Source: an uncultured Actinomycetes bacterium
GTDB lineage: Bacteria > Actinomycetota > Thermoleophilia > UBA2241
Assembly (NCBI GenBank): GCA_963725665.1
Contig: CAVRZA010000004.1
Span: forward strand, 64,001-128,000
Direction of reading: 5' to 3'
DNA: 64,000 nucleotides
Within the stretch, counting starts at the first letter, position 1. Every line of letters begins with the position of its first letter. This document shows positions 342 to 54,103 of the stretch, piece by piece. Under the pieces are notes generated by a model. It saw only the letters and a list, made by a program, of their open reading frames with translations. It was not told the origin of the DNA and searched no databases. Both the position numbers and the translations under genes were made by a program.

Positions 342-371
342 GGTTCGAGAGTTGTCCACAGAGTGCACCTG
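342..371 (+). repeat. Degenerate copy of the att-like repeat
   Basis: GGTTCGAGAGTTGTCC versus consensus AGTTCGAGAGCTGTCT; the minus strand reads GQLSNP; lies at the DUF47 breakpoint. Confidence 0.5.
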
Positions 372-427
372 AGGAGATCGGCGACCGTGCCGCCTGTGGC
401 TAATGCCGGGCCTCACGCCGAGAGATC

Positions 428-489
428 AGTATCCACCAGGCGCTGCAGTTCAATCCGAAAGTTCGAGAGCTGTCTGGTTAGATCCACCA
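428..489 (+). repeat. att-like direct repeat copy 1 (tRNA-Ala-like 3' end)
   Basis: AGTATCCACCAGGCGCTG...AAGTTCGAGAGCTGTCTGGTTAGATCCACCA; the core 459-489 differs from copy 2 at 1 of 31 nt. Confidence 0.85.
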
Positions 490-529
490 AGCATTAGCAC
501 GATAGTAGGGTCATTCAGACCTTGGTCTT

Positions 530-564
530 GAGCCTGTCACCCCTGTTGGGCGGCAGGCTCTTTT
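530..564 (+). terminator. Intrinsic terminator downstream of att-like copy 1
   Basis: GAGCCTGTCACCC/GGGCGGCAGGCTC stem followed by TTTT. Confidence 0.6.
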
Positions 565-568
565 CGTT

Positions 569-612
569 GAGTTCGAGCTGTCAGGGAAGGCACCCAAACA
601 GGACTCGAACTC
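569..612. repeat. Symmetric att-like site containing a tRNA 3'-half-like sequence on the minus strand
   Basis: GAGTTCGAG-N26-CTCGAACTC inverted repeat; the minus strand reads GTTCGAGTCCTGTTTGGGTGCC (T-loop, T-stem 3' strand, acceptor-like strand) with no 5' half. Confidence 0.55.
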
Positions 613-632
613 ACCGACTGACGCCGTCTTGT

Positions 633-839
633 CTACCTGACGGGTTCGGACTTCGGCGGTCGCCCTCTTCGTGGCAACTCGCCGACGTTCTGTGGCAGAC
701 GGCCTGCACGGAAGAGGGCGCTGCGCAAGAGGAGTTCGATGTGTGCGTTGGTGCTGCGTAGCTCATCGGACGCCCAGCGAGCCAAAGCATCGTGAACGGC
801 CGGGTCCACGCGGATGAGCAGACTCTTTCTCTCAGGCAT
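633..839 (-). CDS. Ribbon-helix-helix (Arc/HicB-like) DNA-binding protein
   Basis: MPERKSLLIRVDPAVHDALARWASDELRSTNAHIELLLRSAL...RRGRPP is typical of the actinobacterial RHH family. Confidence 0.85.
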   Translation of the reverse strand: MPERKSLLIRVDPAVHDALARWASDELRSTNAHIELLLRSALFRAGRLPQNVGELPRRGRPPKSEPVR

Positions 840-925
840 TGACTTGAGCCTCACAGGAGGTCAGGGCTGACTCGCTCAGATCGGCAACCTCGATTTGTTT
901 GTCTACAAGACGCAACTGTAATAAA

Positions 926-935
926 CTGATATCAG
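926..935. promoter_or_regulatory. Palindromic operator candidate CTGATATCAG
   Basis: Perfect palindrome in the AT-rich spacer between the divergent RHH and ABC genes. Confidence 0.5.
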
Positions 936-981
936 ATTATAGGCCCAAGACCGTGCCCAGTCTAGGGACCAAGGAAGAGCA

Positions 982-1977
982 GTGAACCAACGAGCGTCGG
1001 TGAAGAAATCAGCGAGAGCGAGCCAAGCAAAGGCCGGCGCAGAGGCCGTCCAGGCTCTTGTTGTTGAGCATCTTCGCAAGACGTACGAGGGGACGGTCGC
1101 GGTCGATGACGTCTCGTTTACAGTCGCCGAGGGCGAGATCTTCGGCATCATCGGTCCCAACGGCGCCGGCAAGACGACGACGGTCGAGTGCGCCATCGGT
1201 CTGCGGACGCCCGACTCCGGAACCATCCGCGTCATGGCATTCGATCCTCACGTCGACCGTGCCCAGGTGCACGCGATCGTGGGAGCGCAACTGCAGACGA
1301 GTGCACTCCAACCCAGGCTGAGGGTCGGTGAGATCCTCGATCTCTACCGCTCCTTCTACCGAGATCCAGCCGATGTGGGCGAGCTGCTCGATGCGCTCGG
1401 GCTTCGTGAGAAGCGGAGCGCCTACTACAAGTCGCTGTCCGGCGGGCAAAAGCAGCGGCTCTCACTGGCCCTGGCGCTGGTCGGCCAGCCCAAGATCGCG
1501 ATCCTTGACGAGATGACGACGGGCCTCGATCCACAAGCCCGGCGCGATACATGGGAGTTGATCGAGGGGGTTCGCGATCGGGGCGTCACTGTCGTCCTGG
1601 TCACGCACTACATGGACGAGGCGGAGCGGCTCTGCGACCGCGTGGCACTCATCGACCAAGGACGCGTCGTGGCCATCGACAGTCCGGCGGCGTTGGCCGA
1701 GCAGGCTGGCGGTGGCAAGCGTGTGCGCTTCGTGCCATCGCAGCCTTTTGACGACCGTCTGCTGACCGCTCTCCCTGAAGTGACGAGCCTCGAACGACAG
1801 GGCCGCCACGTGCTTGTGAATGGCACGGGCGATCTGGTCAACACCGTGATCCTCACGCTGGCGACCGCCGGGGTGACGGCGAATGAAGTCGAGGTAGAGT
1901 CCGGGACGCTGGAGGACGCCTTCGTCAAGCTCACGGGTCGCCACCTCCATGAGGGAGACGAGGTGGCGGCGGGATGA
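982..1977 (+). CDS. ABC transporter ATP-binding protein (ABC-2/drug exporter type)
   Basis: Walker A GPNGAGKT, signature LSGGQ, Walker B ILDE, H-loop THY. Confidence 0.95.
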   Translation: MNQRASVKKSARASQAKAGAEAVQALVVEHLRKTYEGTVAVDDVSFTVAEGEIFGIIGPNGAGKTTTVECAIGLRTPDSGTIRVMAFDPHVDRAQVHAIVGAQLQTSALQPRLRVGEILDLYRSFYRDPADVGELLDALGLREKRSAYYKSLSGGQKQRLSLALALVGQPKIAILDEMTTGLDPQARRDTWELIEGVRDRGVTVVLVTHYMDEAERLCDRVALIDQGRVVAIDSPAALAEQAGGGKRVRFVPSQPFDDRLLTALPEVTSLERQGRHVLVNGTGDLVNTVILTLATAGVTANEVEVESGTLEDAFVKLTGRHLHEGDEVAAG

Positions 1978-2753
1978 ATGCCTCCGGGGAAGGGCTTCCC
2001 GCCTCGCCGCCGCGGGCCGCGTTCGGAAGGCTCGTTGCTTGTGAAGCCAGGCTGGCGTGGAGGGAGCCGATCGGGCTGGTCTTCGGTCTTGCCATTCCCG
2101 TGGTGTTGCTCGTGATCTTCGGCGCCGTGCCGAGTTCCCACGAGCAGCAAGCACAACTCGGCGGCCTCACCGTCATCGCGGTCTACGTCCCGATTCTGAT
2201 TGCGTTCTGCATCGGGATGCTCGCGCTCTTCAGCCTCCCGCGTGCCTTGGTCACCTACCGCGAGTTGGGCATCCTGCGGCGTCTCTCGACGACGCCGCTG
2301 CCACCGAGCTGGGTGCTCGCCGCGCAGCTGGCCATCAACTTCGTGCTCGCCGTGTGGGCGCTTATCATCCTGGTTGTGGTGGGCGTCGCTGCCTTCGGGG
2401 CCGCTGCTCCTAAAAGTCCAGCAGGATTTGCCTTGGCCTTCCTGCTATCGGTCGCCGCGCTGTTTGCCATGGGCTTGTGGGTCGCGGCGGTGGCCCGCAG
2501 CGCCACTGCTGCGAACGCAATGGGAGCCGCACTGTTCTTCCCCCTGGTTTTTTTCGCCGGTCTGTGGTATCCGCAGGAGTTCATGCCGGCGGCTTTGCGC
2601 CACCTCGGTCAGCTGACGCCGCTCGGCGCGTCGGTGCAGGCCCTGCAGAGCGCAAGCCAGGGCAACTTTCCTCCGACCGGATCGCTGTTGGTCCTGGCCG
2701 CCTACGGCGTCGTTTTCGCTCTGCTGGCGGTGAGGTCGTTCCGGTGGGAGTGA
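1974..2753 (+). CDS. ABC-2 type permease
   Basis: About six hydrophobic segments, YRELGILRRLSTTP motif; ATGA overlap with the ATPase gene. Confidence 0.92.
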   Translation: MNASGEGLPASPPRAAFGRLVACEARLAWREPIGLVFGLAIPVVLLVIFGAVPSSHEQQAQLGGLTVIAVYVPILIAFCIGMLALFSLPRALVTYRELGILRRLSTTPLPPSWVLAAQLAINFVLAVWALIILVVVGVAAFGAAAPKSPAGFALAFLLSVAALFAMGLWVAAVARSATAANAMGAALFFPLVFFAGLWYPQEFMPAALRHLGQLTPLGASVQALQSASQGNFPPTGSLLVLAAYGVVFALLAVRSFRWE

Positions 2754-2755
2754 CA

Positions 2756-2881
2756 ATGGGGGGCAGATACCGCGTCGCCGCGGCATTCTGGATGCTCTCG
2801 GACACCCACAGGCTCTGGCTCCTGTTCTGGATGGGGACCGCCAACACCACCACGCTCGTGTGTGATCGGGCCGAAACATGA
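2756..2881 (+). CDS. Possible 41-aa peptide or gene remnant
   Basis: ATG two nt after the permease stop; MGGRYRVAAAFWMLSDTHRLWLLFWMG...; stop overlaps the next ATG (ATGA). Confidence 0.35.
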   Translation: MGGRYRVAAAFWMLSDTHRLWLLFWMGTANTTTLVCDRAET

Positions 2882-3096
2882 AACATCCCGCCGACAAACC
2901 GGGCCGCAAGCTGTTTCTGCTGCGCATCGATTGCGAGCTGTGGAATCAGGTCGAGACGCGTGCCGCGGATGATCTCCGGTCGATCAACGCGGAAGTGGAG
3001 TGGCTGCTGCGCGAGGCGCTTCGCGGCCATGATGACAGTGGCATGATGCCGAGTCGGCCCGAGCCCAGAGACGCAGAGGAGCACGAGACGCGCTGA
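2878..3096 (+). CDS. Second Arc-like ribbon-helix-helix protein
   Basis: RKLFLLRIDCELWNQVETRAADDLRSINAEVEWLLREAL, paralogous to 633-839. Confidence 0.8.
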   Translation: MKHPADKPGRKLFLLRIDCELWNQVETRAADDLRSINAEVEWLLREALRGHDDSGMMPSRPEPRDAEEHETR

Positions 3097-3231
3097 GGAC
3101 CGAGATGCAATTCAGTGTCGGCTTGTAGGCCGGAGGCGACGACGGGTGCCGCGATCCCCACATGTCAAACGAGCCTTCCCCCGAGTATCATTCGGCGCGC
3201 AATCCACTTGCTACAACGTCATTGGCCTAGT

Positions 3232-3300
3232 AGGCGCTGGACTTCGAGGCGTAAGTTCGAGAGCTGTCTGGTTAGGTCCACCAGCGTTGACAGTTCGCCA
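3232..3300 (+). repeat. att-like direct repeat copy 2
   Basis: AGGCGCTGGACTTCGAGGCGTAAGTTCGAGAGCTGTCTGGTTAGGTCCACCAGCGTTGACAGTTCGCCA; contains a CTGGT-N7-ACCAG dyad. Confidence 0.9.
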
Positions 3301-3554
3301 ACGTTTTCCCTGCAAATCTTAAGCTTCTGTTGTCCGGTCGCTCACCGTAGATCCGTATCCGGCTGCTCCCCCAAACCCGGGTCTCGGTTGAAGCACCCGT
3401 TCCTGGGCAATGAGACGGGGGGCCGGGAAGGACGACGGAGCTAGCCAGATTGCCGATGACCTATACGGTCCAGGGTCAGGCGTCAAATGGTTTAGCGTCG
3501 ATGATCCGGAGAACAACCATTGGATGATTGTGCAGGAAACAAGAAGGGACGGCC

Positions 3555-3926
3555 ATGAATCCTAGTGAAGAAATTGACAATTTGATCGCGCAGAATCAGG
3601 ACTGGCGCGGTGCCACGCTAGCGAAGCTCCGCAAGACCATCCTTGAGGTTGATCCCGAGATCATTGAGGAGTGGAAATGGATGGGGTCACCAGTCTGGTC
3701 ACTCAACGGGATTATCTGTGTTGGGAATATTTTCAAGAATAAGGTGCAGCTCGTCTTCATGGACGGTGCGGCACTCAGTGATCCTGACAAACTCTTCAAT
3801 GCCGGACTTGAAGGCAACAAAAGGCGAGCTATTGACGTCTATGAAGGGGATCACATAGAAGAAGGTTCGCTAAAGACTCTTGTTCGTGCTGCCATAAGCT
3901 ACAACCAGGCAAAAGGCAAGAAGTAG
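3555..3926 (+). CDS. DUF1801 (YdhG-like) domain protein
   Basis: DWRGATLAKLRKTILEVDPEIIEEWKWMGSPVWS...LSDPDKLFNAGLEGNKRRAID; visibly lower GC than its flanks. Confidence 0.9.
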   Translation: MNPSEEIDNLIAQNQDWRGATLAKLRKTILEVDPEIIEEWKWMGSPVWSLNGIICVGNIFKNKVQLVFMDGAALSDPDKLFNAGLEGNKRRAIDVYEGDHIEEGSLKTLVRAAISYNQAKGKK

Positions 3927-4181
3927 GTCTGTCGATGGGGAAGATGCGGGCGGACCTTCCGTGAACGGCGGCGCACGTATCCGTGCTCGTCATCTGAGCC
4001 TGCGTGCGTTGCCCGGGTAGTCGTAGGTAAGCCCGTCTCGGTCGAAGAGGATTTCGGCGCGAAAGTCGTCATCGAGCAGCCAATGGCTCGCGCGGGCGCC
4101 GGTAGCCGACTGACGGACTCTTCCCGCCGGTTTGGCCTCTCAATCATCGGAGTGAGGCTCCGACGCTTGTGCTACACTATT

Positions 4182-4260
4182 AGTATCAACCAGACTCTGA
4201 ACTTCAAGGCGTAAGTTCGAGAGCTGCCTGGTTAGGTCCACCACCGTTGTCAATTCGACA
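4182..4260 (+). repeat. att-like direct repeat copy 3
   Basis: AGTATCAACCAGACTCTGAACTTCAAGGCGTAAGTTCGAGAGCTGCCTGGTTAGGTCCACCACCGTTGTCAATTCGACA. Confidence 0.9.
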
Positions 4261-4299: not shown

Positions 4300-4525
4300 C
4301 AAGCCGTACCTCAAGTAGCGGCGCTCGCTGGCGACTCCGGTGCCGGTGAGCCGCCCGATCGCGGCCTTGCGTGCGCTTCCACCACTTGTCCTCGCAGCCG
4401 AGAGGAGTAGGCTCAACCTGCGTGCGACACCCTCGCCATGGCTCCGCTGGCGGTCTGAGCGCGTGCGAGCCGGGGGCAGGACCACCGTGACCCGGGCGCC
4501 GGCCGGCCCGGCGAGGAGGCAGCGG

Positions 4526-7500
4526 ATGACGGCTGCGGTGAGACAGCCGAGCACGACTTTCAGGGTCTTCGTCAGCTCGACCTTCGAGGACTTCCGGGCC
4601 GAGCGGAACGCGCTCCAACGGTACGTCTTTCCGCGGCTGGCGGAGCTGTGCGCGACCCGGGACGCGCGGTTCCAGGCGATCGACCTGCGCTGGGGCGTCG
4701 GCGAGGAGGCAAGCCTCGACCAGCGCGCCATCCCCATCTGCCTTACCGAGATCGAGCGCTGCCAGCGGGTCACGCCGCGGCCCAACTTCATCGTGCTCAT
4801 GGGCGACCGCTACGGCTGGCGCCCGCTGCCCGCCCGCATCGACGCTGCGGAGTTCGAGCTGCTGCTCGCGACGATCCCGGAGGAGGATGCCGCGGTCCTG
4901 GCCTGGTCGCAAGGGCAGGCGGCGGGAGCCGAAGGCTGGTACCGCCGCGACGACAATGCGGTGCCTCCCGAGTACGTGCTACGGCCGCGCAGGTTAGTCG
5001 TGCCCGAGGGCGCGAGCGAGGAGGAACGTGAGGACGCCGCGGAGGCCGAGCGCCGGGAGTGGACGACGGTCGAGGCGCGGCTGCGGGCGATCCTTCTCCG
5101 CGCGGTGGATGCGCTCGGCTGGGCCGAGGCCGAGCCAGCGCGGCGTAAGTACGTGGCCTCGGCGACCGAGCAGGAGATCGTGCTCGGCGCCCTCGAGGCC
5201 GACGGCGCCGCCGAGCACGTCTTCGCTTTCTTCCGCACCATCGACGGCCTGCCCGCGGGCGAGTCCGCCAAGAGGTTCTGCGACCTGACGGCGTCGCCGA
5301 AGGGACTCGTCCCCGACGCGGACGCGCGGGCCAGGCTCACATCGCTCAGTGCGGAGTTGCGGGACGTGCTCGGCAGCCACGCGCTGGACTCCTACCGGGC
5401 GAGGTGGACGGGCGAAGGGATCACCACCGATCACCTGGGGACGCTGCCCGAGGATCTGAGCGACTGCTTGGGCCTGCTCGACGAGCCGGATGCGCCGCAT
5501 ACCCTCTGCGCCGATGTCTGGCGCAGCATCGCCGGCGTGATCAAGAGCGAGCTCGACCGGCCGGAGGCTGACGAGGCCATCGACCGGGAGATCGCGCGCC
5601 ACGCGAGGTTCGGCGAGGCGCGGTGTCGGGACTTCGTCGGCCGGGAGGAGGTCCGCACGGAGATCGCCGCCTACCTGGCGGGGACCGAGGCTCATCCGCT
5701 CGTGCTGGTGGGCGAGGGCGGCTCGGGCAAGTCGGCGCTCATGGCCAAAGCGGTGCAAGAGGCCGTGAGCGCACATCCGGGCGCCGTCGTCGCTGCGCGC
5801 TTCATCGGCGCCACACCCGCCGCCTCCGACGGGCGCTCGCTGCTCGACGCCGTCTGCCGCCAGCTGGCACGGGCCACCGGCGGCGACGAGGCGACGCTCC
5901 CGGCCGGGCTGTCGGACCTTTCGGTCGAGCTCGCCCGGCACCTCGCTCGCGCCACGGCGGAGCTGCCGGTCTTCGTGTTCCTCGACGCGCTGGACCAGCT
6001 CGGCGCCACCGACCCGGCTCGTGGCCTCGCTTGGCTGCCCGCGAGCCTGCCCGACCACGCCCGGCTGGTGGTCTCCACCGTGCCGGGCGCCTGCGAGACC
6101 GCTCTGCGGGCCAGGCGCCCGGAGCCGCGGTTCCTCAGCCTCGACAGGATGTCGCGCCGGGAAGGCGAGACGGTGCTTGAGATCTGGCTCGACAAGGAGG
6201 GCCGCACGCTGCAGGAAGGGCAGCGGGCGGCGGTGCTCGATGCGTTCGAGCCCGAAGGCCGCCCGCTCTATCTCAGGCTGGCCTTCGAGGAGGCGCGGCT
6301 GTGGCGCTCGTTCAGCGCGCCGGCCGAGACGAGGCTGCAACCCGGCATTCCCGGACTCATTCGAGGCAACCTGCTGGCCCGTCTGGAGGCGCCCGAGAAC
6401 CACGGCCGGCAGCTAGTGGCGCGTGCGCTCGCCGCCCTCGCCGCCTCGCGCCACGGCCTGGCGGAGGACGAGCTCGTGGCGCTGCTGTCGGCGGACGCCG
6501 ACGTGATCGCCGACTTCCGCCGCCGCTCGCCGCGCTCGCCCGCCGTCGGGCAACTGCCGGTGGTGGTGTGGTCGCGCCTCTACTTCGACCTTGAACCGTA
6601 CCTGTCCGAGCACGCCACCGACGGAGCCACGCTGCTGGCTTTCTACCACCGCGCCCTCGCCGAGGCGGCCCGGGAGGAGTACCTAGCGGATGAGCCCGAG
6701 CGGCGCGTCGTCAACTCGGGCCTCGCCCGCTACTTCCGCGGGGTGGCCGACCCGAACGGAGACGGCGACTGGCAGCCGCGCGCCCGGGCGCTGGCGGAGC
6801 TGCCGTTCCACCTGGCGGAGAGCGCGGCGGCCGGCGAGCGAGGCGCGGCGGAGGAGCTTGAGGCGCTCCTCACACAACTCGGGTACCTGGCCGCCCGGGT
6901 CGCCACCGGCAAGGCCTACGAGCTGGTCGCCGCATACGAGCTCACCGAGCCGCTGGGCCCGGCGCTCATCGAGTGGCGGGGCTTCCTGGAGAAGCACGCC
7001 CAGCGCCTGTACCAGCATCCGGCCATGCTCGTCGGGCTGGTGAACCACGAAGGCTTCGCCGCCGCCCGGGCGCAGGTGGACGACGTGCCGCACCCAGGCG
7101 TCTGGCTCCGCACGTCGCCGGAGTCCCTGCCGGGGCCCGAGCCCGGGCTCGGGCCCGAAGGCGGCGACGCGGAGGCGGTGGCCGCGGGCGGGATCGAGGT
7201 CGCCGCCAGCCTGTCCTTCTCCTCGCCGCGCGTGCTGGCGGTCGCGCCCGACCGGGAGGCGGGGTTCGTCCTCGATGGCCTCGGCATCCTGCGTGTGCTC
7301 GACTTGCGCGCCATGCGGGAGACGGAGACGACACTGCCGATCAGGCGCGAGCCGCTGCTCACGCTCGCCGCTGCGCCGGACGGCGGCGGCCTCATGGCGG
7401 TCTACGAGTCGGCGGTCGGCGAGCTCTACCGTTGCCACGAGGGCCCGGACGGCCTGCCGTCGAGCCTGGAGGCCGTGACCGCCGTCGAGTGTGGGCTGCC

Positions 7501-9049
7501 GGAGTTCGAGGCGCCGGTCGCCGTGTGGCACCGGCGCCGGTTCTGGTTCCAGGCCGGCTCGGGCGCGCTCGGCAGCGTGTCGCTCGAGGAGCCGGCGGTC
7601 GTGGAGGATCCGCTGCCGGGCGGCGAAGCCGCCGAGCTCGCGGCGCTCGTGCACGACACGGACGCGGGTGCGGCCGTGATCGTGCTGCGGGAGGCACACG
7701 ACACGCTGCTCATCGCGCCCGACGGTTCGACCCTGCGGCGGTCCGGGGTGGAGCCCGCGGCCGCCGTCGCGTGCGGCCCGGCCCGGTGTGCCGTGCTCTT
7801 CAGCGACGGCGAGCTCGTGGTCTACGACTGCGGCGCGGCGCTCACACCCGTGTGCCAGACGCGCGTCGGGGTCGTGCTGGGGCACATCGGCTGGGACGGC
7901 TCTCGGCTCCTCTGGCTGGACCCGGAACACAACGTGACGGCCTGGTCTCCCGGCGATGGCTCGCCCGCCCGGCTGCGGGGGGCCGAAAGCCTGTTCCCGC
8001 GAGGCCTGCTCAAGGTCCCGCTGGACTGGCTCCCCCGGCCCGGCGGCGGGATGCTGGCGGTCACCACGCACGGCGTGGACGCGTTCCGCGTCGCGATTGC
8101 GAAGCCGGGAGGCGCCGGCGTGTTCCAGGAGCTGTTCGGCGGCCAGGCTTGGCTGGCCGTCGACCGGCGGGGGGACGAGTGGTGGCTGGTCCGGGGCCAG
8201 CCCTCCAGCCAGGTGCCGCTCGCCCGCGCCCTCAGCGGCCGCTTCTTCTGCGCCGTGGACGGCCGCGGCAGCTTCTATGCGGCGAACGGCCATGGAGCCG
8301 ACGTCGTGGTCGACCTTGCCTCCCTGGACCGCGCACCCATCGAGGGCTGCCCCTTGGGTCTCAACGCCGCCGCCGGCGACCGGCGGGAAGGCTGCTGGCT
8401 GGTCGACCGGGCGGGCGACATCTACGCCGTCGACCCTGCCGGGCACTGCCGGCCGGCGGTGCGCTGCGAACTGCGGGAACCCTTGGGCGCCCGGCTGCTG
8501 GACTGCGGGGACTGGCTGGTGTGGTCCGGCCTGGCCAGCGCGACCTTCGCCGATGTCGGCGACGAGCCTGCGCCGACGTTGCTGTTCTACCGCAAGCTGT
8601 CGTCGGGGGCCGGCGCGACGCTGGAGCTGGCCGGCCGGTACGTGCGCCACCCGAACGAGGGCCAGTCCTCCGGCCTGTGGTTCGACGACGCCGCCGGCCG
8701 TCTCGTCTCCCTGTGGCTGGCGCCTCGTCATGAGGAGGAGCCCTACAGGCTGCTGGTCGCCCCGCTCGAGGACGCCACGGCCGGGCGCTTCACGGAGACG
8801 CCGGTCGTGGGCTTGGGCAACGTGCGATGCGCCGGCGGCAGCCTGTCTGCCGACGGCGCGTTCCTGGGCCTGCTGACCGGCGTCGGCGAGCTTCACTGTG
8901 TCCGCGTCGCTGACGGCAGGAGCGTCGCCATCCTGGCCGGCAGTCTGCCGTTCACGTCCGTGGCGGCCGGCCCGCGGGCCGCGGAGTTCTGGCTGGCCGA
9001 AGCACAGGCGCAGCCCTATCACTGCAGCGTAATCGGAGGGGACCCATGA
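4526..9049 (+). CDS. DUF4062-NACHT (STAND) NTPase with C-terminal beta-propeller-like repeats (NWD/TEP1-like architecture)
   Basis: N-terminal FRVFVSSTFEDFRAERNAL...IDLRWGV (DUF4062); Walker A GEGGSGKS; Walker B VFLDALDQL; GRPLYLRLA and GLAEDEL helical motifs; beta-rich Trp/Asp C-terminal half; GAGGAGG before ATG 4526. Confidence 0.88.
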   Translation: MTAAVRQPSTTFRVFVSSTFEDFRAERNALQRYVFPRLAELCATRDARFQAIDLRWGVGEEASLDQRAIPICLTEIERCQRVTPRPNFIVLMGDRYGWRPLPARIDAAEFELLLATIPEEDAAVLAWSQGQAAGAEGWYRRDDNAVPPEYVLRPRRLVVPEGASEEEREDAAEAERREWTTVEARLRAILLRAVDALGWAEAEPARRKYVASATEQEIVLGALEADGAAEHVFAFFRTIDGLPAGESAKRFCDLTASPKGLVPDADARARLTSLSAELRDVLGSHALDSYRARWTGEGITTDHLGTLPEDLSDCLGLLDEPDAPHTLCADVWRSIAGVIKSELDRPEADEAIDREIARHARFGEARCRDFVGREEVRTEIAAYLAGTEAHPLVLVGEGGSGKSALMAKAVQEAVSAHPGAVVAARFIGATPAASDGRSLLDAVCRQLARATGGDEATLPAGLSDLSVELARHLARATAELPVFVFLDALDQLGATDPARGLAWLPASLPDHARLVVSTVPGACETALRARRPEPRFLSLDRMSRREGETVLEIWLDKEGRTLQEGQRAAVLDAFEPEGRPLYLRLAFEEARLWRSFSAPAETRLQPGIPGLIRGNLLARLEAPENHGRQLVARALAALAASRHGLAEDELVALLSADADVIADFRRRSPRSPAVGQLPVVVWSRLYFDLEPYLSEHATDGATLLAFYHRALAEAAREEYLADEPERRVVNSGLARYFRGVADPNGDGDWQPRARALAELPFHLAESAAAGERGAAEELEALLTQLGYLAARVATGKAYELVAAYELTEPLGPALIEWRGFLEKHAQRLYQHPAMLVGLVNHEGFAAARAQVDDVPHPGVWLRTSPESLPGPEPGLGPEGGDAEAVAAGGIEVAASLSFSSPRVLAVAPDREAGFVLDGLGILRVLDLRAMRETETTLPIRREPLLTLAAAPDGGGLMAVYESAVGELYRCHEGPDGLPSSLEAVTAVECGLPEFEAPVAVWHRRRFWFQAGSGALGSVSLEEPAVVEDPLPGGEAAELAALVHDTDAGAAVIVLREAHDTLLIAPDGSTLRRSGVEPAAAVACGPARCAVLFSDGELVVYDCGAALTPVCQTRVGVVLGHIGWDGSRLLWLDPEHNVTAWSPGDGSPARLRGAESLFPRGLLKVPLDWLPRPGGGMLAVTTHGVDAFRVAIAKPGGAGVFQELFGGQAWLAVDRRGDEWWLVRGQPSSQVPLARALSGRFFCAVDGRGSFYAANGHGADVVVDLASLDRAPIEGCPLGLNAAAGDRREGCWLVDRAGDIYAVDPAGHCRPAVRCELREPLGARLLDCGDWLVWSGLASATFADVGDEPAPTLLFYRKLSSGAGATLELAGRYVRHPNEGQSSGLWFDDAAGRLVSLWLAPRHEEEPYRLLVAPLEDATAGRFTETPVVGLGNVRCAGGSLSADGAFLGLLTGVGELHCVRVADGRSVAILAGSLPFTSVAAGPRAAEFWLAEAQAQPYHCSVIGGDP

Positions 9050-10025: not shown

Positions 10026-11297
10026 TCACATCGCAGCGGCGTTGCCTTTCCGCGGCCTGCCGAGCGGGGGTCTGGCTCTCGACGGTCGCAGTGACGTGGG
10101 GTGAACGAACTTGCTTCCGTTCGGGCCCGCCTTCACGGCCATGTGGAGCGCGCTGCCGTGCCACAGGTCGCGCCAGCTCAGGAACCAGACCGTCCAGCCG
10201 TTGCCCCAAGTCCCGCCGCGCGGGCTGCCGGTGATCGTCACCGGGTCGCCGGGGACGGAGAGGTTGTAGTAGGTGATGGCGTGCTCCGGTGAGAGGTTCA
10301 CGCAGCCGTGGCTCACGTTGGCGAATCCCTGGGACCCCACCGACCAGAAGGCGTCGTGCAGGTAGGCGCCGCTCCAGGTGAACCTGACCGAGTAGGGCAC
10401 CATGATGTCGTAGCCAGGCCCCTTCATCTCGGCCGGGTTCTGCTTCTCGATCGTCAGGTAGGTGCCGTTGGGCGTGTCGTCCCCGGGCTTTCCCGAGCTC
10501 ATCGGCCAGTTTCCGAGCAGCCGTCTGTTGAGGTAGACGTGCACCCGGTGAGTGTCCGTGTCGGCCACGGCGATGAGCGAGCGTCCGATGACGAAGCTCT
10601 GCCTCAAGGTGTGCCCTCCGTAGACACCGGGCGCACCCTCGACGCCGTTGAGGTGCCCGACGAAGCGGACTCGCGTGTGCTGGGGCCAGTAGTTCCGCGG
10701 CCGAAAGTAGAGGGTGGACGGTCCGTCCCAGTACCAGGCTCCGGTCACCGGCTTCGAGGTCCAGAGCTGGAGCGAGCGCTCCACGGCGCGGCGGTTCGTT
10801 ATGGGGACGCTGAACGTGAGCATCACGGGCATGCCGACGCCGTAGGTCTGGCGGTACCCCTCGAAGATCTGCGTGACGAACGTCTGGCGGGGAGTGAGGG
10901 TGCGGAAGGTGCTTGTCCCTGTGCTCAAGCGCCCTGCCGCGTCGCGAACCGTGACGCTCACCGTGTACCGCGTCCCCACGTCGAGAGGCCAGCGGTTGCG
11001 CCAGGCGGTGGCTGCGGGGTTGAGCGCGCCCGGCACGGGATCTCCCTTGGTCGTCACCGAGACGTGCACGATCGTCCCGTCGCTGACGCTGATCCTGATC
11101 CCCTTCTGGGGTTTCACCTTGGTGGCGCCGTCGGCAGGCGTGATCGACAGCTGGGCGGCGGGCAGGCTCGGCGTCGGCGAAGCCGACGGAGGCTGCCCGC
11201 CGCCCCCGCACGCCGCGGCGACGAGGCCCAGGCACAAGGTCGCCGCGACGGCCGCCATGATGCGCTTGGTCGCTGCCGTGATCACTACGCCGACCAC
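10026..11297 (-). CDS. L,D-transpeptidase lipoprotein (Ldt, Ig-like + YkuD domain)
   Basis: Lipobox-like VAAACG; YLHDAFWSVGSQGFANVSHGCVNL catalytic motif. Confidence 0.93.
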   Translation of the reverse strand: MVGVVITAATKRIMAAVAATLCLGLVAAACGGGGQPPSASPTPSLPAAQLSITPADGATKVKPQKGIRISVSDGTIVHVSVTTKGDPVPGALNPAATAWRNRWPLDVGTRYTVSVTVRDAAGRLSTGTSTFRTLTPRQTFVTQIFEGYRQTYGVGMPVMLTFSVPITNRRAVERSLQLWTSKPVTGAWYWDGPSTLYFRPRNYWPQHTRVRFVGHLNGVEGAPGVYGGHTLRQSFVIGRSLIAVADTDTHRVHVYLNRRLLGNWPMSSGKPGDDTPNGTYLTIEKQNPAEMKGPGYDIMVPYSVRFTWSGAYLHDAFWSVGSQGFANVSHGCVNLSPEHAITYYNLSVPGDPVTITGSPRGGTWGNGWTVWFLSWRDLWHGSALHMAVKAGPNGSKFVHPTSLRPSRARPPLGRPRKGNAAAM

Positions 11298-11478
11298 TCA
11301 CCCTCCGATGCCACCGGTGCCCCGAGATTCGGGAGCCGTGTGGTGAGCCCTCTTTTCCCCGACAAGGTGGGTAAGAAGCTGCGCGCTCGTCCCGTCGGCG
11401 TGATCCGGCGTCTACATGGCTGATGCGCACGGAGCTCAGCCCGACCACCCGCTCCATCGTGCTAAGGTCTTGAGTCCG

Positions 11479-11587
11479 GTGACCGCCTGACGGCGTCGCG
11501 GCGGCGACAAGAGCGACGATCGGAGTGGCAGCGTTCAGTGACCGCCTGACGCCACCGCGGCAGCGGCAACAGCGAAGTTCGGAGTGG
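11479..11587 (+). repeat. Two imperfect 50-bp direct repeats (59-bp period)
   Basis: 11479-11528 and 11538-11587, both GTGACCGCCTGACG...TCGGAGTGG, 42/50 identical. Confidence 0.8.
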
Positions 11588-15829: not shown

Positions 15830-17317
15830 ATGGCCACATCGACCACTGTGAAGGCGCGCACCATTGGTGCGGCGCGCACGAGAAGCCTCAAGATCCGCCT
15901 CATCGAGCCGGCGCCGCCGAGCATCAACATCCTGTCTTACGGGTTCTATCCGCGCCTCGGTCTGCCGGTCATCGGCGCGGCGCTCAAGGCCGCCGGCCAC
16001 GACGTGCTCATCTACTGTCCGCAGGCGGCCCCCATCGACCGCGACGACCTAGCCTCGGCCGACCTCGTCGGCATCTCGACGACCACCTCGACGGCGCCGG
16101 CTGCATTCGCGCTGGCCGACGAGCTGCGGGCCGCCGGCATGCCCGTGATCATCGGCGGACCGCACCCCACCTTCGGCCCCTGGGACGCCATGCCGCACGC
16201 CGACTTCGTGGCCCGCGGCGAGGGCGGCGATGAGCTCATGCTGGAGCTCATCGAGGCGCTCGCCGGCGAGCGCGAGCTGGAGAGCATCCGCGGGCTCTCG
16301 TTCTGGCGCGACGGGCAGCCGGTGCACAACGAGCTGCGCGACCCCCCGGCTGATCTCGACTCGATGCCCGTACCCGACCTCTCCCTGATCGTGGGCGCGG
16401 AGCGCATCTACGAGACGCCCATCATGACCAGCCTGGGGTGTCCGTTCGACTGCACCTTCTGCACGGTGACGCTCATGTTCGGGCGCAAGTACCGCTGCCG
16501 CAGTCCGGAGCACGTGGTCGCCGAGCTCGAGGCCAAGCGGCCGAAGAAGGTCTTCTTCTACGACGACAACCTCGCCGCCAACAAGAAACGGCTCAAGACC
16601 CTCCTGCGCATGATGATCGAGCGCGGCGTGACGATGCCCTGGCTGGCCCAGGTGCGCGCCGACGTGGCGCGCGACGAGGAGCTTCTGACCCTCATGCGGC
16701 AGTCGGGCTGCCGGCGTCTGGCGCTGGGGTTCGAGTCGGTCGATCAGGCGACGCTCGACAGCTACGACAAGTCACAGACCGTCGAGGACATCGTGCACGC
16801 CATCGACGCGCTGCACCGCCACGGCATCAAGGTCCACGGCATGTTCGTCGTGGGCGCCGACAACGACACCGTGCAGACCGCGCGCGACACGATCACCTTT
16901 GCCGAGAAGCACGGCATCGACACGCTCATGCTCAACGTCCTGACGCCCGGCCTCGGCACCAAGCAGTTCGAGATGATGGACGCCGGCAACCGCATCTTCG
17001 AGACGCGCTGGCAGTTCTACGACGGCCAGCACGTCATCTATGTGCCGCAGCAGATGACGCCGTCCGAGCTGCAGACCGAGGTCGTCGAAGGCTACCGGCA
17101 CTTCTACTCGCTGCGCCGAGGGCTGGGCCTCCTCGCGCGCCTGCGCTTCGCCGACCTGCTGCCGCACCTCTGGGGCTGGCTGTTCACCCGCCGCTGGCAG
17201 AAGGACCCGGCGAACCAGGCGTACGTCAAGGAACTGGCGGACGGGTCGTGGCAAGAGTCACTAGCTGCCCAGACGTTCTACCGGGCGGCTGGGGCTCGCG
17301 CCCCAGCCGCCCGGTAG
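15830..17317 (+). CDS. B12-binding domain radical SAM protein
   Basis: PRLGLP, DLVGIS, GGPHPT, RGEG cobalamin-domain motifs; CPFDCTFC; FFYDDN; GFES. Confidence 0.93.
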   Translation: MATSTTVKARTIGAARTRSLKIRLIEPAPPSINILSYGFYPRLGLPVIGAALKAAGHDVLIYCPQAAPIDRDDLASADLVGISTTTSTAPAAFALADELRAAGMPVIIGGPHPTFGPWDAMPHADFVARGEGGDELMLELIEALAGERELESIRGLSFWRDGQPVHNELRDPPADLDSMPVPDLSLIVGAERIYETPIMTSLGCPFDCTFCTVTLMFGRKYRCRSPEHVVAELEAKRPKKVFFYDDNLAANKKRLKTLLRMMIERGVTMPWLAQVRADVARDEELLTLMRQSGCRRLALGFESVDQATLDSYDKSQTVEDIVHAIDALHRHGIKVHGMFVVGADNDTVQTARDTITFAEKHGIDTLMLNVLTPGLGTKQFEMMDAGNRIFETRWQFYDGQHVIYVPQQMTPSELQTEVVEGYRHFYSLRRGLGLLARLRFADLLPHLWGWLFTRRWQKDPANQAYVKELADGSWQESLAAQTFYRAAGARAPAAR

Positions 17318-49969: not shown

Positions 49970-51389
49970 CTACTCCGCACAGCCGTACGACTGACTGTCA
50001 GCTACAAGTGCCGGCGCCCCGCCGAGGGACACCCGCCTGAGCATCCTGAGGTAGGCGCGGTTGGCCCTCTCCCTAGGCCACCGGCGCAGGAACCACCAGT
50101 ACCAGCTGTACAGGGCCATCGGGCCGAAACGGCGGGCAGCCAGGTACTTGAGCCACTGGCCCGGCGAGTAGAAGCGCGAGTAGGCGCGCAGCACCTCCCT
50201 CTGGAGCTCGTCGGCGGTCATCAGCGCCGGCGTGAAGACCACGTGCAGGGCGTCGTAGAGATCCCAGTGCCTGTCGAAGATGCGACCCGCCGTGTCAAGG
50301 TCGGTGAACTGCCGCGTGCCCGGGAGCGGGGTGAGGATGTTGAGCATCAGCGTGTCTACGTCGTGCTCCCGGGCGAACCTCACCGTGTCGCGTACGGTCT
50401 CGGCCGAGTCGGTGTCGGCGCCCAGCACGAACATGCCGTGGCTCTTGATGCCGTACTCGTGCAGCGTGTCGATGGCGCGCGCGATGTCGTCGAGGCTCTG
50501 CGACTTCTCGAAGCCATCCAACGTCGTCTGGCTGACCGATTCGAAGCCTATCGCGAGCAGGTCGCAGCCGGAACGTCGCATCAGGTCGAGCAGCTCGTGG
50601 GTCCTTCGCGACGTCGGCGCGTACCTGGGCCGACCAGGGGATCGCTCGGCCGCTGGCGATCATTGCACGCAGCAACGTCTTGAGCCGCCGCCTGTCGGCG
50701 GCGAAGTTGTCGTCGTAGAAGAAGATGCGCTGCGGGAGCTTCTCCTCGAGCTCGGCCATCACGTGCTCCACACTGCGGTAGCGGTACGTGCGGCCGAACA
50801 TGGCGGTGACCGAGCAGAAGTTGCAGACGAAGGGGCAGCCCCAGCTCGTCATGATCGGGGTTGCTCGCAACTCCTTGCAGCCGGCGATCAGCGAGAGGTC
50901 GGGTACGGGAAGAGCGTCGAGATCTTTGCAGCGGTCGCGCGGCCGGTTGTGAATGGCTACGCCACCCCGCGTGAACGAAAGACCTGGGATGTCCTCGAGC
51001 TCTCGCCGGCCTGCGAGCGCGTCGATGAGCTCGAGCATCAAGGCCTCGCCGCCTTCGCCGCGCGCCACGTAGTCGACGTGTTCGAGTGCCTCATCGGCCA
51101 TGAAGGTCACGTGGGAGCCGCCGATCACCGTGGGGATGCCGCGTTGGCGAAGCCGGTCGGCCATCTCGTAGGCGGCCGGCGCCGTCGACGTGGTGCTCGA
51201 GATGCCCACCAGGTCCGCAGCGAGCACGTCGTCCCAGTCGACAGGGTGGAGCTGAGGGCAGTAGATGACCACGTCGTGGCCGGCCGCCTTCAATGCCGCG
51301 CCGATCATGGGCAGGCCGAGACGCGGGAAGAAGGTGTAGGACCACATGTGGATGTGGGCAGGGGCTGGTTCTATGAGGCGGATCTTCAT
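49970..51389 (-). CDS. B12-binding radical SAM protein, paralog of 15830-17317; apparent frameshift near 50597
   Basis: KIRLIEPAP, PRLGLPMIGAALKAAGHDV, CPFVCNFC, FFYDDN, GFESV. Confidence 0.9.
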
Positions 51390-53041
51390 GCCGCGACCCG
51401 CCTGCGTATCAGAAGGAGAGCGATGTCGTCGGCCATAGGAGCGCCGTTGGCCGTCTCGACGTCGGCGAGGAGGCGGTCGATCTCATCATCGTCGCGCAGC
51501 GGCCTGCGTTGCAGCCGGTCAACAAGACGACCCTCGCCGTAACGTTCCGATTCCCCCGGCTGCGCGCGTCCCTCGACCAGTCCGTCCGTGTAGAACAGCA
51601 AGGACCACGAACCATCCAGATGGAAGTTGACCGGGCTCCAGATGTCGTTCCCCTCAACGCCGAGCGGGAGGGCCGGCGGGGAGTCGAGTGACGCCACTCG
51701 GGGCGTCAGCAGCAGGGGGAGGGGGTGACCGATGTTGAGGCAACGTACCTGGTCACCGACGGCGCTGACCCACGCCAGCGAGGCGGTCGCGAAGGTCTCC
51801 TCAGCGCGACGTTCCCTGACCACCACGGCATCGAGGGTGCTCCTGATCGTGCGTGGGGAGGCGCCGCTCATGACCAGGGCCTGCCACGTCGACCGCAGGC
51901 TGGCGCCGAGCGCCGCGGCGGCCGGACCGTGGCCGCTCACATCGCCCACGATCAGGGCCAGTTCGCCGTCGTCGAGCGCCAGCACGTCGAGGAAGTCGCC
52001 GCCCAGCCTGAGCCGGCTCTCCGAGGGGCGGTAGCGCCGAACGACCTCGAGGCTTCCATGCTCGACGAACGCGGGCGGGATGAGGTTCCCCTCGAGGGCG
52101 GCGTGGAGATAGACGAGCTGATGCTGGGCCTCGCGGCGGCGTGCGTTCTCGAGGGCGACACTCGCCTGATCGGCGAACCCCTGGGCCACGTTCGCAAGTT
52201 GGCCGTCAAGGCTGGGCAGGCCCACCTGCCAGCTCAGGGTGAGGAGTCCCTTCAGCCTCCCCCCACTGACCATAGGCGCGATGAGCGACCTGCGCAGCGG
52301 AAGATGCTTGGTCGCCGACAGGAGAGGTCCTCCCGATGCTGCTTCCTCGACGTCTCCCAGAACGACCGGCCGTCGGGTGCTGACCAGTGCCTCGACGTTG
52401 GGGAAGTCCGACAGGGAGAACGCGGCGAGAGCCGAGTTCATCGCCGCCTCGGGGTCACCTCCGATGAGGGTGACCGTCTGGCCTTCGACCGCGTACAGGC
52501 GCACCCAATCGGATCCGAAGATCTCGTGCGCGGTGCGGCAGATCTCCGCGCCCACATCGGCGGAGTCTTTCACGTGAAGCGATGGAGCGTGCAGCATGAT
52601 GCGCTCCATCGCTTCGCGCACCAGAGTCTCGCGACTGAGGGACTCGGCGGCGCGCTCACCGCTGCGCTGGTGACGTCGCAGCAAGTTGGCCAGGCTCCCC
52701 GCGAGGACCGCCGCGAGGCACCAGATGGCGGCTCCGCCGATCGTCCCGAAGGTGGAGGACGTGGCTCCGAGATGAGCCACGAGGAGGAAGAAGGCGACCG
52801 CGCCGACGAGGGCGCACACGATCCCGACCGTGGGGCCGGCGAGGATGGCAGCCAGCATGACGACGAGCGTGACCCCGGAGCCCGGGATCCCAAGGAGCAG
52901 CTCGGACGACGGGTTCGCGCCGGCAAGGGCGAGAAAGCAGACCTCGACGCTGGCCGCGACCGCGAGGACCACGAGCGGCCGCCGACGCGCCGGGAGTCGC
53001 TCGAGGAGTGGACGGACACGCAGTCGATTCGAGGGAGACAC
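51386..53041 (-). CDS. Membrane-anchored GAF + PP2C/SpoIIE phosphatase
   Basis: TMs, GAF (FADQASVALENAR), GGDFLD, GDVSGHG, YTDGLVE, DDIALL; stop overlaps the radical SAM start. Confidence 0.92.
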   Translation of the reverse strand: MSPSNRLRVRPLLERLPARRRPLVVLAVAASVEVCFLALAGANPSSELLLGIPGSGVTLVVMLAAILAGPTVGIVCALVGAVAFFLLVAHLGATSSTFGTIGGAAIWCLAAVLAGSLANLLRRHQRSGERAAESLSRETLVREAMERIMLHAPSLHVKDSADVGAEICRTAHEIFGSDWVRLYAVEGQTVTLIGGDPEAAMNSALAAFSLSDFPNVEALVSTRRPVVLGDVEEAASGGPLLSATKHLPLRRSLIAPMVSGGRLKGLLTLSWQVGLPSLDGQLANVAQGFADQASVALENARRREAQHQLVYLHAALEGNLIPPAFVEHGSLEVVRRYRPSESRLRLGGDFLDVLALDDGELALIVGDVSGHGPAAAALGASLRSTWQALVMSGASPRTIRSTLDAVVVRERRAEETFATASLAWVSAVGDQVRCLNIGHPLPLLLTPRVASLDSPPALPLGVEGNDIWSPVNFHLDGSWSLLFYTDGLVEGRAQPGESERYGEGRLVDRLQRRPLRDDDEIDRLLADVETANGAPMADDIALLLIRRRVAA

Positions 53042-53452: not shown

Positions 53453-54103
53453 ATGAGCGAGCAACCTGGGGCACACGAACGTCTGCTCACCCCTGATCAA
53501 GTCGCCGAGCGATTGAGCCTGAGCGTCCTCACGGTGCGGGCCTGGTTGCGCTCGGGAAAGCTCCCGGGGGCCAAACCTGGAGGCAAGGTCTGGCGCGTGC
53601 GTGAGGCCGATCTCGACGAGTACATCCGTGCTCTTAGCCAGGGCGACGGCCACCGGGGCAACGGCCACCAGGGCGACGGTCACCAGAGCGACGGGCACCG
53701 GGCAACGGGCACCGCGTCGTCCAAGACCGGCGTTGAGAGCCGCGACGGCCGAGGCTGGTGCTACGCCGATCCGCCAACGGCGGCAGGCAGTGCAGAACCG
53801 CCGCCATCACCATCAGAGAGAGGGCAGCAATGCATCATTTTGGCGCCGCGCGACGACCGGTTAGCAGCCGCTATCGCGTCGCCACCTTCGAAGAACGCAG
53901 AGTCTGCGCCGAGGAGGGCTGTGTCACCCGGCTCTCGATCTACAATCCCGGCGCCTTCTGTGCTCTTCACGCGACGCGAGCCCGTTCATTCTCCACCTCG
54001 GGACGGTAGCGGCGGCGGGGCGGCGGCTGCTTTGAGCGGAGGCACCTTAGTAATCCGCAAAGACTCCTTAACACGAACTCAACAAGTATGGGGCAGACTG
54101 TGA
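53453..54103 (+). CDS. Excisionase/BldC-like HTH protein with (G/S)(D/N)GH(R/Q) repeats; C-terminal extent uncertain
   Basis: LLTPDQVAERLSLSVLTVRAWLRSGKLPGAK..KVWRVREADL; GDGHR GNGHQ GDGHQ SDGHR. Confidence 0.75.
   Translation: MSEQPGAHERLLTPDQVAERLSLSVLTVRAWLRSGKLPGAKPGGKVWRVREADLDEYIRALSQGDGHRGNGHQGDGHQSDGHRATGTASSKTGVESRDGRGWCYADPPTAAGSAEPPPSPSERGQQCIILAPRDDRLAAAIASPPSKNAESAPRRAVSPGSRSTIPAPSVLFTRREPVHSPPRDGSGGGAAAALSGGTLVIRKDSLTRTQQVWGRL
53830..54009 (+). CDS. 59-aa putative zinc-finger protein
   Basis: RVCAEEGCVTRLSIYNPGAFCALH (C-x4-C...C-x2-H); GAGAGG RBS before ATG 53830. Confidence 0.65.
   Translation: MHHFGAARRPVSSRYRVATFEERRVCAEEGCVTRLSIYNPGAFCALHATRARSFSTSGR

Follow-up and report, generated by a model that had tools for sequence, protein, structure and literature searches.

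A repeated tRNA-3'-end-like site with a conserved minus-strand reading frame in small cassettes of uncultured Actinomycetota

We analysed a 64,000-nucleotide stretch of DNA (hereafter the window; positions 64,001 to 128,000 of contig CAVRZA010000004.1, assembly GCA_963725665.1) from an uncultured bacterium of the class Thermoleophilia. Close to its left end, the window carries three copies of a short repeated site, each of which encodes a peptide of 20-33 codons on the minus strand. In our judgement, the repeats are rather probably the arms of integrase-less islets at tRNA genes, and the peptide the stub of a helix-turn-helix (HTH) gene that is still under purifying selection.

Three sites and their cassettes behind a tRNA-Met gene

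The core of the site, GTTCGAGAGCTGTCTGGTTAGGTCCACCA, occurs on the plus strand at 461-489, 3255-3283 and 4215-4243, with 0-1 mismatch, compared with no match in 100 shuffles. The three copies can be aligned across about 70 nt. An earlier sequence-only reading of this DNA had pointed out antisense peptides running from the "CCA end" of each copy. These peptides are exactly as it wrote them: VDLTRQLSNFRIELQRLVDTDLSA (487-413), VDLTRQLSNLRLEVQRLLGQ (3281-3219) and VDLTRQLSNLRLEVQSLVDTNSVAQASEPHSDD (4241-4140), each followed by a stop codon. ARAGORN finds no tRNA gene in the window, so that the "CCA end" is a CCACCA motif only. The true tRNA gene, tRNA-Met(CAT), shares the strand of the sites and is located 504-580 bases beyond the left end of the window. 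The site does not appear to be a fragment of it: it aligns to the 3' end of this neighbouring tRNA only at the T-loop and at CCACCA. The next gene after tRNA-Met(CAT) is Arr-ms, on the minus strand. The order is tRNA-Met(CAT), Arr, a decayed site, site 1, ABC transporter, site 2, DUF1801 protein and site 3. A search of the whole genome of the window with nhmmer and a profile of 49 sites returned these three copies, the decayed copy and one diverged copy only; the latter is found on another contig, 1.5 kb behind tRNA-Ala(TGC). The features of the array are the following.

343-369, plus strand: decayed site of the GTGCACC type, end of the Arr cassette (nhmmer C4:64337-64359, E 0.0066)
413-489, minus strand: site copy 1; core 461-489, micro-open reading frame (micro-ORF) of 24 codons from 487 to 413 including the stop
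490-565, plus strand: "type 2" left end of cassette 2, beginning AAGCATTAGCA, with a terminator-like hairpin at 542-557
633-3096, plus strand: cargo of cassette 2 (Pfam), comprising the four following genes
633-854, minus strand: weak HicB-like ORF (Pfam)
982-1977: ABC ATPase (Pfam)
1974-2753: ABC-2 permease (Pfam)
2878-3096: weak Arc-like ORF (Pfam)
3219-3283, minus strand: site copy 2; core 3255-3283, micro-ORF of 20 codons from 3281 to 3219
3284-3355, plus strand: "type 1" left end of cassette 3, an inverted repeat followed by TTTTCCCTGCAA..CTTCTG..CCGGTCGC
3555-3926, plus strand: DUF1801 protein, cargo of cassette 3 (Pfam 2.4e-19)
4140-4243, minus strand: site copy 3, last of the array; core 4215-4243, micro-ORF of 33 codons from 4241 to 4140

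The decayed copy at 343-369 has lost one nucleotide, which breaks its minus-strand frame. In its place, two contigs from other samples, belonging to two studies, have intact site letters, with joints at 359/360. Contig X6 joins the Arr cassette directly to the DUF1801 cassette (359 to 3299, with the intact site letters between), and contig X2 joins the Arr cassette to the flank that follows site 3 (360 to 4234); region 2701-3150 lies outside their coverage. Thus, the order of the cassettes differs between organisms and the breaks are at the sites. A contig from an RNA library spans 3545-4066, within the DUF1801 cassette. Across the sequencing runs compared, none contained as much as half of the words sampled from the window.

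Relatives of the site were sought in the taxonomic family of the window with a degenerate pattern, allowing at most 2 mismatches. Sites were found in 42 of 89 genomes, including 15 of the 32 high-quality ones; the reversed pattern, used as a control, gave 1 match in all. Sites also form arrays elsewhere, on a single strand, with 8 sites on G002:C165 (7 of the 8 were found again by a fuzzy scan of its first 17.5 kb), 5 on G061:C12, 3 on G051:C27 and 3 on G005:C7. Within arrays the sites are spaced by 0.9-4.9 kb, which gives the size of the cassettes. Among loci with a tRNA gene within reach, 14 have their sites downstream of and co-oriented with it, namely Met-CAT, Ala-TGC, Ala-GGC, Ala-CGC or Glu-TTC; two loci, L090 and L054, break this pattern. 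The 59 loci with sites are distributed mostly among Thermoleophilia and other metagenome-assembled genomes of Actinomycetota, with a few in Saccharibacteria/Patescibacteria and Acidimicrobiales. The pattern has 0 matches in viral contigs.

The cargo of related cassettes includes an aminotransferase with a saccharopine dehydrogenase, a beta-helix protein, ArsR with an aspartyl protease, and TetR with MMPL, and most cargo genes are co-directional with the tRNA and the sites. Some sites stand back to back, only about 67 nt apart (L015:1434-1527, L036:6860-6957, and L010 around 2228). We read these as "empty" units made of the arm alone, and the same arrangement is seen at 343-489 of the window.

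The sites of the window are directly followed by a gene for a STAND NTPase of 1569 residues (DUF4062, AAA_16/NACHT and an NWD1-like winged HTH; 4340-9049, plus strand), which looks like a defence-type gene at an island border. On the other side of the array, the five frames upstream of tRNA-Met(CAT) comprise one alcohol dehydrogenase and four frames without Pfam match, and no recombinase.

The minus-strand frame and a family of two-HTH proteins

With more copies added, the coding-like pattern of the minus-strand frame is far beyond chance. At codons 10, 11, 13, 16 and 17, the entropy of third positions is 1.5-2.0 bits, versus 0.4-1.1 at first and second positions. A stop codon occurs inside the first 20 codons in 1 of 49 copies, compared with 9, 21, 21, 38 and 44 of the 49 in the other five frames. 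Over codons 10-19, which lie outside the search pattern, the Nei-Gojobori omega is 0.23 in the minus frame. The differences between the window copies had been described as mostly synonymous or conservative. In the larger set, 18 independent nearest-neighbour pairs, 1-10 differences apart, display 58.5 synonymous versus 44.5 nonsynonymous differences, giving a ratio of nonsynonymous to synonymous changes per site (pN/pS) of 0.26. The Arg and Leu columns use 5-6 synonymous codons. Arg11 is retained in 68 of the 84 truncated copies (CGC 19, CGG 18, CGA 16, CGT 11, AGG 2, AGA 2), Leu10 in 56 of the 84 by means of six codons, Arg16 in 58 and Leu17 in 67.

Omega is 1.2-1.95 in four of the remaining frames. 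The fifth is a plus-strand frame that reads ..RRKFESCLVRST.. and has its third positions in common with the minus frame; its ratios (omega 0.45, pN/pS 0.33) are the lowest after those of the minus frame. This would be expected if the plus strand were the coding one, the site providing a shared C-terminal extension to the cassette genes. However, this frame meets a stop within 60 nt in 9 of 49 copies, as opposed to 1 of 49 in the minus frame, and a TGA is located 5 codons upstream in copy 3. No cassette gene of the window enters it, and of the two frames only the minus one matches a real protein family. We give this explanation hardly any credence.

Starting from the Val codon, the lengths of the minus-strand ORF peak at 20, 21 and 24 codons, with 15, 14 and 19 of 88 copies respectively (48/88 together). 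In 21 of the 88, the frame stays open for at least 35 codons, into unrelated sequence. The consensus of the stub is V D L [ST] [GR] Q L S N L R x E [VL] [QR] R L [LFV] [DE]. By reading, it suggests an amphipathic pattern, with Leu or Val at heptad-like spacing.

The peptide corresponds to the N-terminus of an uncharacterised family of two-HTH proteins of about 150 residues, whose members start with (M)VDLTGQLSN. At five loci from other taxa (L061, L085, L093, L098 and L096), this frame stays open for 109-155 codons. A scan of four of them showed two HTH domains in each (HTH_23, HTH_7, HTH_38 and Sigma70_r4); the frame of the fifth, L093, is near-identical to that of L098. The ORFs of the window end after 20-33 codons, before the two C-terminal HTH domains, and are stubs rather than members of the family. 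The protein of L085 has 113 database relatives. Among 25 that were fetched, 17 have QLSN within their first 13 residues, typically as (M)VDLTGQLSNPQPAL..LAD; the others are one variant, six with called N-terminal extensions and one without the segment. No other part of the family is as well conserved as this N-terminal segment. Of 32 metagenome loci, 29 have the start of the gene at the site motif. The window copies were compared with the proteins P0008, P0009, P0072 and others and share with them the VDLxGQLSN segment encoded at the tRNA-like core; the DNA is identical over about 27 nt. The sequence-only reading had proposed that the peptide belongs to the C-terminal tail of a protein, plausibly the recombinase; the motif is instead the N-terminus of this family.

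Full-length genes are seen in other Actinomycetota and in Saccharibacteria, again with their start at the tRNA-3'-end-like core. L061 and L085 each have an islet that measures about 3.9 kb and follows tRNA-Ala; the gene occupies its far end and reads inward from the core. One of these islets carries DUF5677 and an AAA_15 ATPase, the other a MacB-type permease and PadR; no recombinase is present in either. L164 and L191 have the same layout. Among 183 neighbouring ORFs from 10 loci, the HTH gene is the only family common to different loci. At L151, two full-length HTH genes (4997-5449 and 10605-11096) are found 5.6 kb apart in one orientation, showing that full-length elements also stack in tandem.

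In the full-length protein, a short N-terminal segment is followed by a proline-rich linker and then by the two HTH domains. An AlphaFold model of a relative (mean pLDDT 81.6) has a low-confidence N-terminal part of 45 residues with one short helix, followed by two confident three-helix HTH domains. The best Foldseek matches are 2lvs, 1u78 and 6pax, none of them at E 0.001 or better. The nearest folds are a CRISPR repeat-binding protein, the bipartite DNA-binding domain of Tc3 and Pax paired domains. NCBIfam HTH_Cbp1 scores 25-29 bits, and NCBIfam and PHROGs give only generic HTH matches below their cut-offs. In the Atlas, relatives fall in unnamed clusters of Actinomycetota. A search of plasmid and phage collections with P0008 returned no relative. 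The full-length protein is predicted to be a site-specific DNA binder of the paired/Tc3 type without catalytic domain.

In a sample of the phylum, relatives were found in 12 of 401 genomes, and a clean N-terminal motif at the start was found in 0 of the 8 inspected. Two other Actinomycetota have long multi-HTH ORFs of 763-990 residues with at least 3 tandem two-HTH modules (G396:C1:222082-224205 and G160:C27:56448-58745). In the 89 genomes of the taxonomic family of the window, the HTH alignment gave only generic HTH matches; of the best three, one is a two-HTH protein with an unrelated C-terminal part and two are unrelated HTH frames, which we take to be N-termini of IS21-like transposases.

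The stubs might be dead fossils of such full-length genes, their codon pattern being inherited and only the DNA arm being of importance. It fits this view that full-length genes are found elsewhere and none in the family of the window, that we see no translation signals at the stub, that the copy at 343-369 is frameshifted and that 21 of 88 copies run on into unrelated sequence. On the other hand, the 84 truncated copies share a consensus of their own, LRxEVxRL, where full-length genes have PQPALxxLAD. Close truncated copies still have the synonymous bias given above, and their stops cluster at 20, 21 and 24 codons. These three properties are not expected from many independent random truncations, and we consider the fossil explanation unlikely. 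The stub seems to be under purifying selection still, among close copies, and it may be translated into a short amphipathic peptide, or may have been until recently. Taking its own consensus together with this selection, we rather favour a translated micropeptide over a pure fossil. This also agrees with the fallback of the sequence-only reading, in which each site encodes a micropeptide of 20-33 residues and which fits the protein-level constraint seen in the minus frame.

Anatomy of the site and search for a recombinase

The arm is a degenerate mimic of a tRNA 3' end, with a T-loop sequence GGTTCGA, 16 nt and CCACCA. Its match to tRNAs is limited to the T-loop and 5-9 nt at CCAC(CA), the site being 5 nt longer. 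The site sequence is alike at four different tRNAs. In view of the short resemblance and of the extra 5 nt, the crossover probably lies at or right of CCACC. To the right of CCACC, the sequence varies from cassette to cassette and the flanks group into families. The commonest one consists of an inverted repeat, then TTTCTCCCTGCAA, then CTTCTG..CCGGTCGC. The sequence behind the tRNA-Met(CAT) gene is itself homologous to this "type 1" flank, as expected if each unit brings its own left arm. The "type 2" left end (AAGCATTAGCA..GATAGTAGG..), at 490-565 of the window, also follows sites in L007, L012, L035, L037 and L081. In the window the terminator-like hairpin (542-557) comes after it, and this left end might represent a small RNA or an operator. 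A TGCTACAAT-like motif is observed on the plus strand about 50 nt before the core, at 3195-3215 and 4170-4190 of the window as well as in L014, L022, L035 and L036. It resembles an extended -10 element, which would drive transcription antisense to the micro-ORF.

An ORF, plausibly that of a recombinase, had been proposed to span the crossover, so that integration and excision would swap the C-terminal tail of the protein. Two observations speak for it: in many copies the frame crosses the core without a stop, and ELSTL/ELTTV is common to copies 2 and 3 upstream of the peptide. Splitting of the integrase gene by integration, as in SSV-type elements, is a comparable layout. The EL[S/T]T[L/V] similarity is indeed present. 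Its meaning as an in-frame protein segment did not hold, since it belongs to a hairpin flank that starts 1, 2, 3 or 4 nt after CCACC in 6, 20, 2 and 4 of 88 copies, and is therefore read in different frames. No protein conservation is found upstream of the Val codon; the distance at which the frame closes there varies, being 2-50 codons in most of 50 copies. Longer frames through the core resemble random high-GC sequence. Seven of them were inspected and all are Arg/Pro/Ala-rich, random-looking frames; the long frame of L066 merely enters a response-regulator gene.

We also searched for the recombinase itself. None was found inside the arrays or at 1.5 kb or less from a site, and no integrase fragment abuts any site. 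When 10 integrase frames from the genome of the window were compared with 38 loci by tblastn, only one gene was found, about 12.8 kb from the nearest site. The genome of the window, which is 97.5% complete, has 16 matches to PF00589, none of them on the contig of the window (C4), and no match to the resolvase family PF00239. The best score with the integron integrase model TIGR02249 in this genome is 85.9 bits versus a cut-off of 265, and the matches are Xer-like. A search of 5.8 billion proteins with the 52-residue frame of copy 3 gave 4 matches, all small spurious ORFs, and no recombinase bearing the peptide. The examined loci contain no cognate integrase-bearing element with the same attachment (att) sequence, in a search that was not exhaustive. 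A tyrosine recombinase is encoded on G002:C165 and adjoins no site. Integrases located by other tRNAs of the window's genome end 60-130 nt before the tRNA and lack such an arm.

The swap of a recombinase tail thus found no counterpart in the data, the peptide motif being N-terminal in the actual protein family, and we regard it as very improbable.

Alternatively, the site could act as a folded nucleic acid, either as a hairpin resembling the attC of integrons or as a structured RNA, for instance a tRNA-like small RNA, with an incidental triplet pattern. The integron box at the 3' boundary is GTTRRRY, and GTTAGGT in the core fits it by eye, a weak argument alone. As in clusters of attC sites, the cassettes are small, mostly co-oriented and without integrase. 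The plus strand presents the T-loop and CCA mimic, then a hairpin and a T-run, and the TGCTACAAT motif occurs about 50 nt upstream in some cassettes. RNAalifold, however, predicted 2 pairs for 49 copies, at -0.04 kcal/mol and with no compensatory change. The window gave no Rfam match at gathering thresholds and no ARAGORN match. Variation is concentrated at third codon positions, not in paired columns, and no integron integrase reached the TIGR02249 cut-off. A folded site is, in consequence, scarcely to be expected.

Several observations in the same genome are mentioned for completeness. Near tRNA-Arg(CCT) (468624-468699, in G000:C1:464000-484300), tyrosine-recombinase fragments are found, one upstream on the plus strand and three on the minus strand further downstream. 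They belong to an ordinary tandem island in decay, whose att is different. ARAGORN also called a tRNA-Pyl(CTA) at C6:343702-343774, which may be a false positive, and a tRNA-SeC(TCA) at C11:550041-550138. In the window, four adjoining inverted-repeat blocks, about 1.1 kb in total and 73-78% complementary, are located 33-35 kb apart (15885-16969 and 50306-51391) and are probably diverged paralogous genes in opposite orientation. A 55-nt unit in two copies spaced by 59 nt and a 15-nt periodic repeat (CCAGGGCGACGGCCA-like) are present at 11474-11587 and 53638-53697.

Interpretation and relation to known systems

We propose that the repeats would be the distal, attachment-type arms of small cargo islets without integrase, which form head-to-tail stacks downstream of a tRNA gene. 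The opposite strand of the arm would carry the 5' end of the only hallmark gene of this element family, with its GTG start codon inside CCACCA. In the Thermoleophilia lineage, this gene would be reduced to a stub of 20-33 codons, with the consensus VDL[ST][GR]QLSNLRxEV[QR]RL[LFV][DE]. The cassettes would be moved by site-specific recombination, through a tyrosine recombinase acting in trans and with a crossover at CCACC or immediately to its right. Given the 16 PF00589 matches and the lack of resolvase, such a recombinase is a conservative guess. As the start codon is inside the core, recombination would change the region upstream of the gene.

Several points weigh against this scheme. The identity between site and tRNA is short, and the flank after a site is often like the flank after the tRNA. 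The crossover could thus lie further right, or homologous recombination between repeats could be behind the reshuffling. No recombinase is linked to the sites, and neither an excised circle nor an empty site was seen, so that site-specific mobility is deduced from the anatomy of the sites and the two contig joints only. The full-length HTH gene was found neither in the genome of the window nor in the 89 genomes of its family, which leaves the stub without obvious partner. No Shine-Dalgarno sequence or clear promoter is seen before the stub, and a scan for promoters and terminators gave nothing at the sites; the one RNA-library contig over a site gives no strand and may be DNA. Finally, the copies were collected with a pattern spanning codons 1-9, and low ratios are also obtained for the plus frame whose third positions coincide with those of the minus frame.

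A more far-reaching, and in our opinion doubtful, possibility is that the sites belong to an integron-like cassette system of Actinomycetota operating on tRNA 3' ends. The HTH protein, or the peptide of 20 codons, would then be a specificity or directionality factor of the recombinase, and the recombinase would come from the host or from another element. Promoter-poor cassettes would be captured and reshuffled at a site of 67-140 nt, and each recombination would rewire the 5' control region of the protein or peptide gene.

Under the preferred scheme of integrase-less islets, the stub is a candidate functional micropeptide tied to DNA recombination, and the elements offer a test case for mobilisation without an integrase of their own. 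The site also provides a simple marker for cassettes of flexible genes in uncultured Actinomycetota of soil and peat. So far, their cargo includes a rifampin ADP-ribosyltransferase, transporters and defence-like ATPases.

The closest parallels are islands accreted in tandem at tRNA genes, among them cis-mobilizable elements (CIMEs). In CIMEs, integration genes are lost and att sites kept, the elements form tandem stacks at the 3' end of the target gene, and any mobilisation depends on a recombinase in trans (PMC5704250). The general logic of tRNA islands is set out in the Islander description (PMC4383910). As in accretion of CIMEs, the units described here are bounded by direct repeats downstream of and co-oriented with a tRNA, which 14 loci fit and 2 do not. 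In contrast with CIMEs and tRNA islands, the repeat appears to be a conserved mimic instead of an exact piece of tRNA, being 5 nt longer and the same at different tRNAs. In addition, the cassettes are very small and numerous, the arm encodes a conserved ORF and no cognate integrase-bearing element was found.

The tycheposons of Prochlorococcus place cargo at tRNA genes including Met-CAT and Ala-GGC (bioRxiv 10.1101/2020.12.28.424599). Nothing but partial tRNA copies stands between neighbouring tycheposons, and older elements are pushed deeper into the island (bioRxiv 10.1101/2020.12.28.424599). The present islets are likewise cargo elements stacked at tRNA genes; tycheposons own integrases and replication genes, whereas these are lacking here and the hallmark is the two-HTH gene or its stub.

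By analogy, the arrays also resemble clusters of attC sites lacking integrases (CALINs), in that their cassettes of 1-3 genes are mostly co-oriented and each end in a conserved site of about 60-70 nt. CALINs are integrase-less arrays of small, mostly co-oriented cassettes, with cargo such as Arr, transporters and antitoxin-like genes. Unlike integrons and CALINs, the present system has no IntI and no attC hairpin symmetry or covariation, and its arrays are anchored at tRNA genes.

A gene close to an att site, whose flanking control region is changed by integration or excision, is known from Pcirc of ICEclc, from the junction promoters of insertion sequences (IS) and from sib of phage lambda. 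In those cases the gene is that of an integrase or transposase, while here it encodes an HTH protein devoid of catalytic domain, or a stub of 20 codons before which no clear promoter is seen. Compared with SSV-type split integrases, no int fragments flank the elements. The modelled relative has two three-helix HTH domains, like the N-termini of the Tc3 and Mos1 transposases, the Pax paired domain and Cbp1. It differs from these by its N-terminal VDLxGQLSN segment, which has no counterpart in them, by the lack of a catalytic domain and by the absence of a match at curated cut-offs. No prior description of such a system was among the top 8 results of each full-text search, in a literature collection that is incomplete and covers main texts. 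Islands anchored at tRNA genes are known; here, the repeated arm seems to go beyond a scrap of tRNA, as a conserved mimic that doubles as a gene start.

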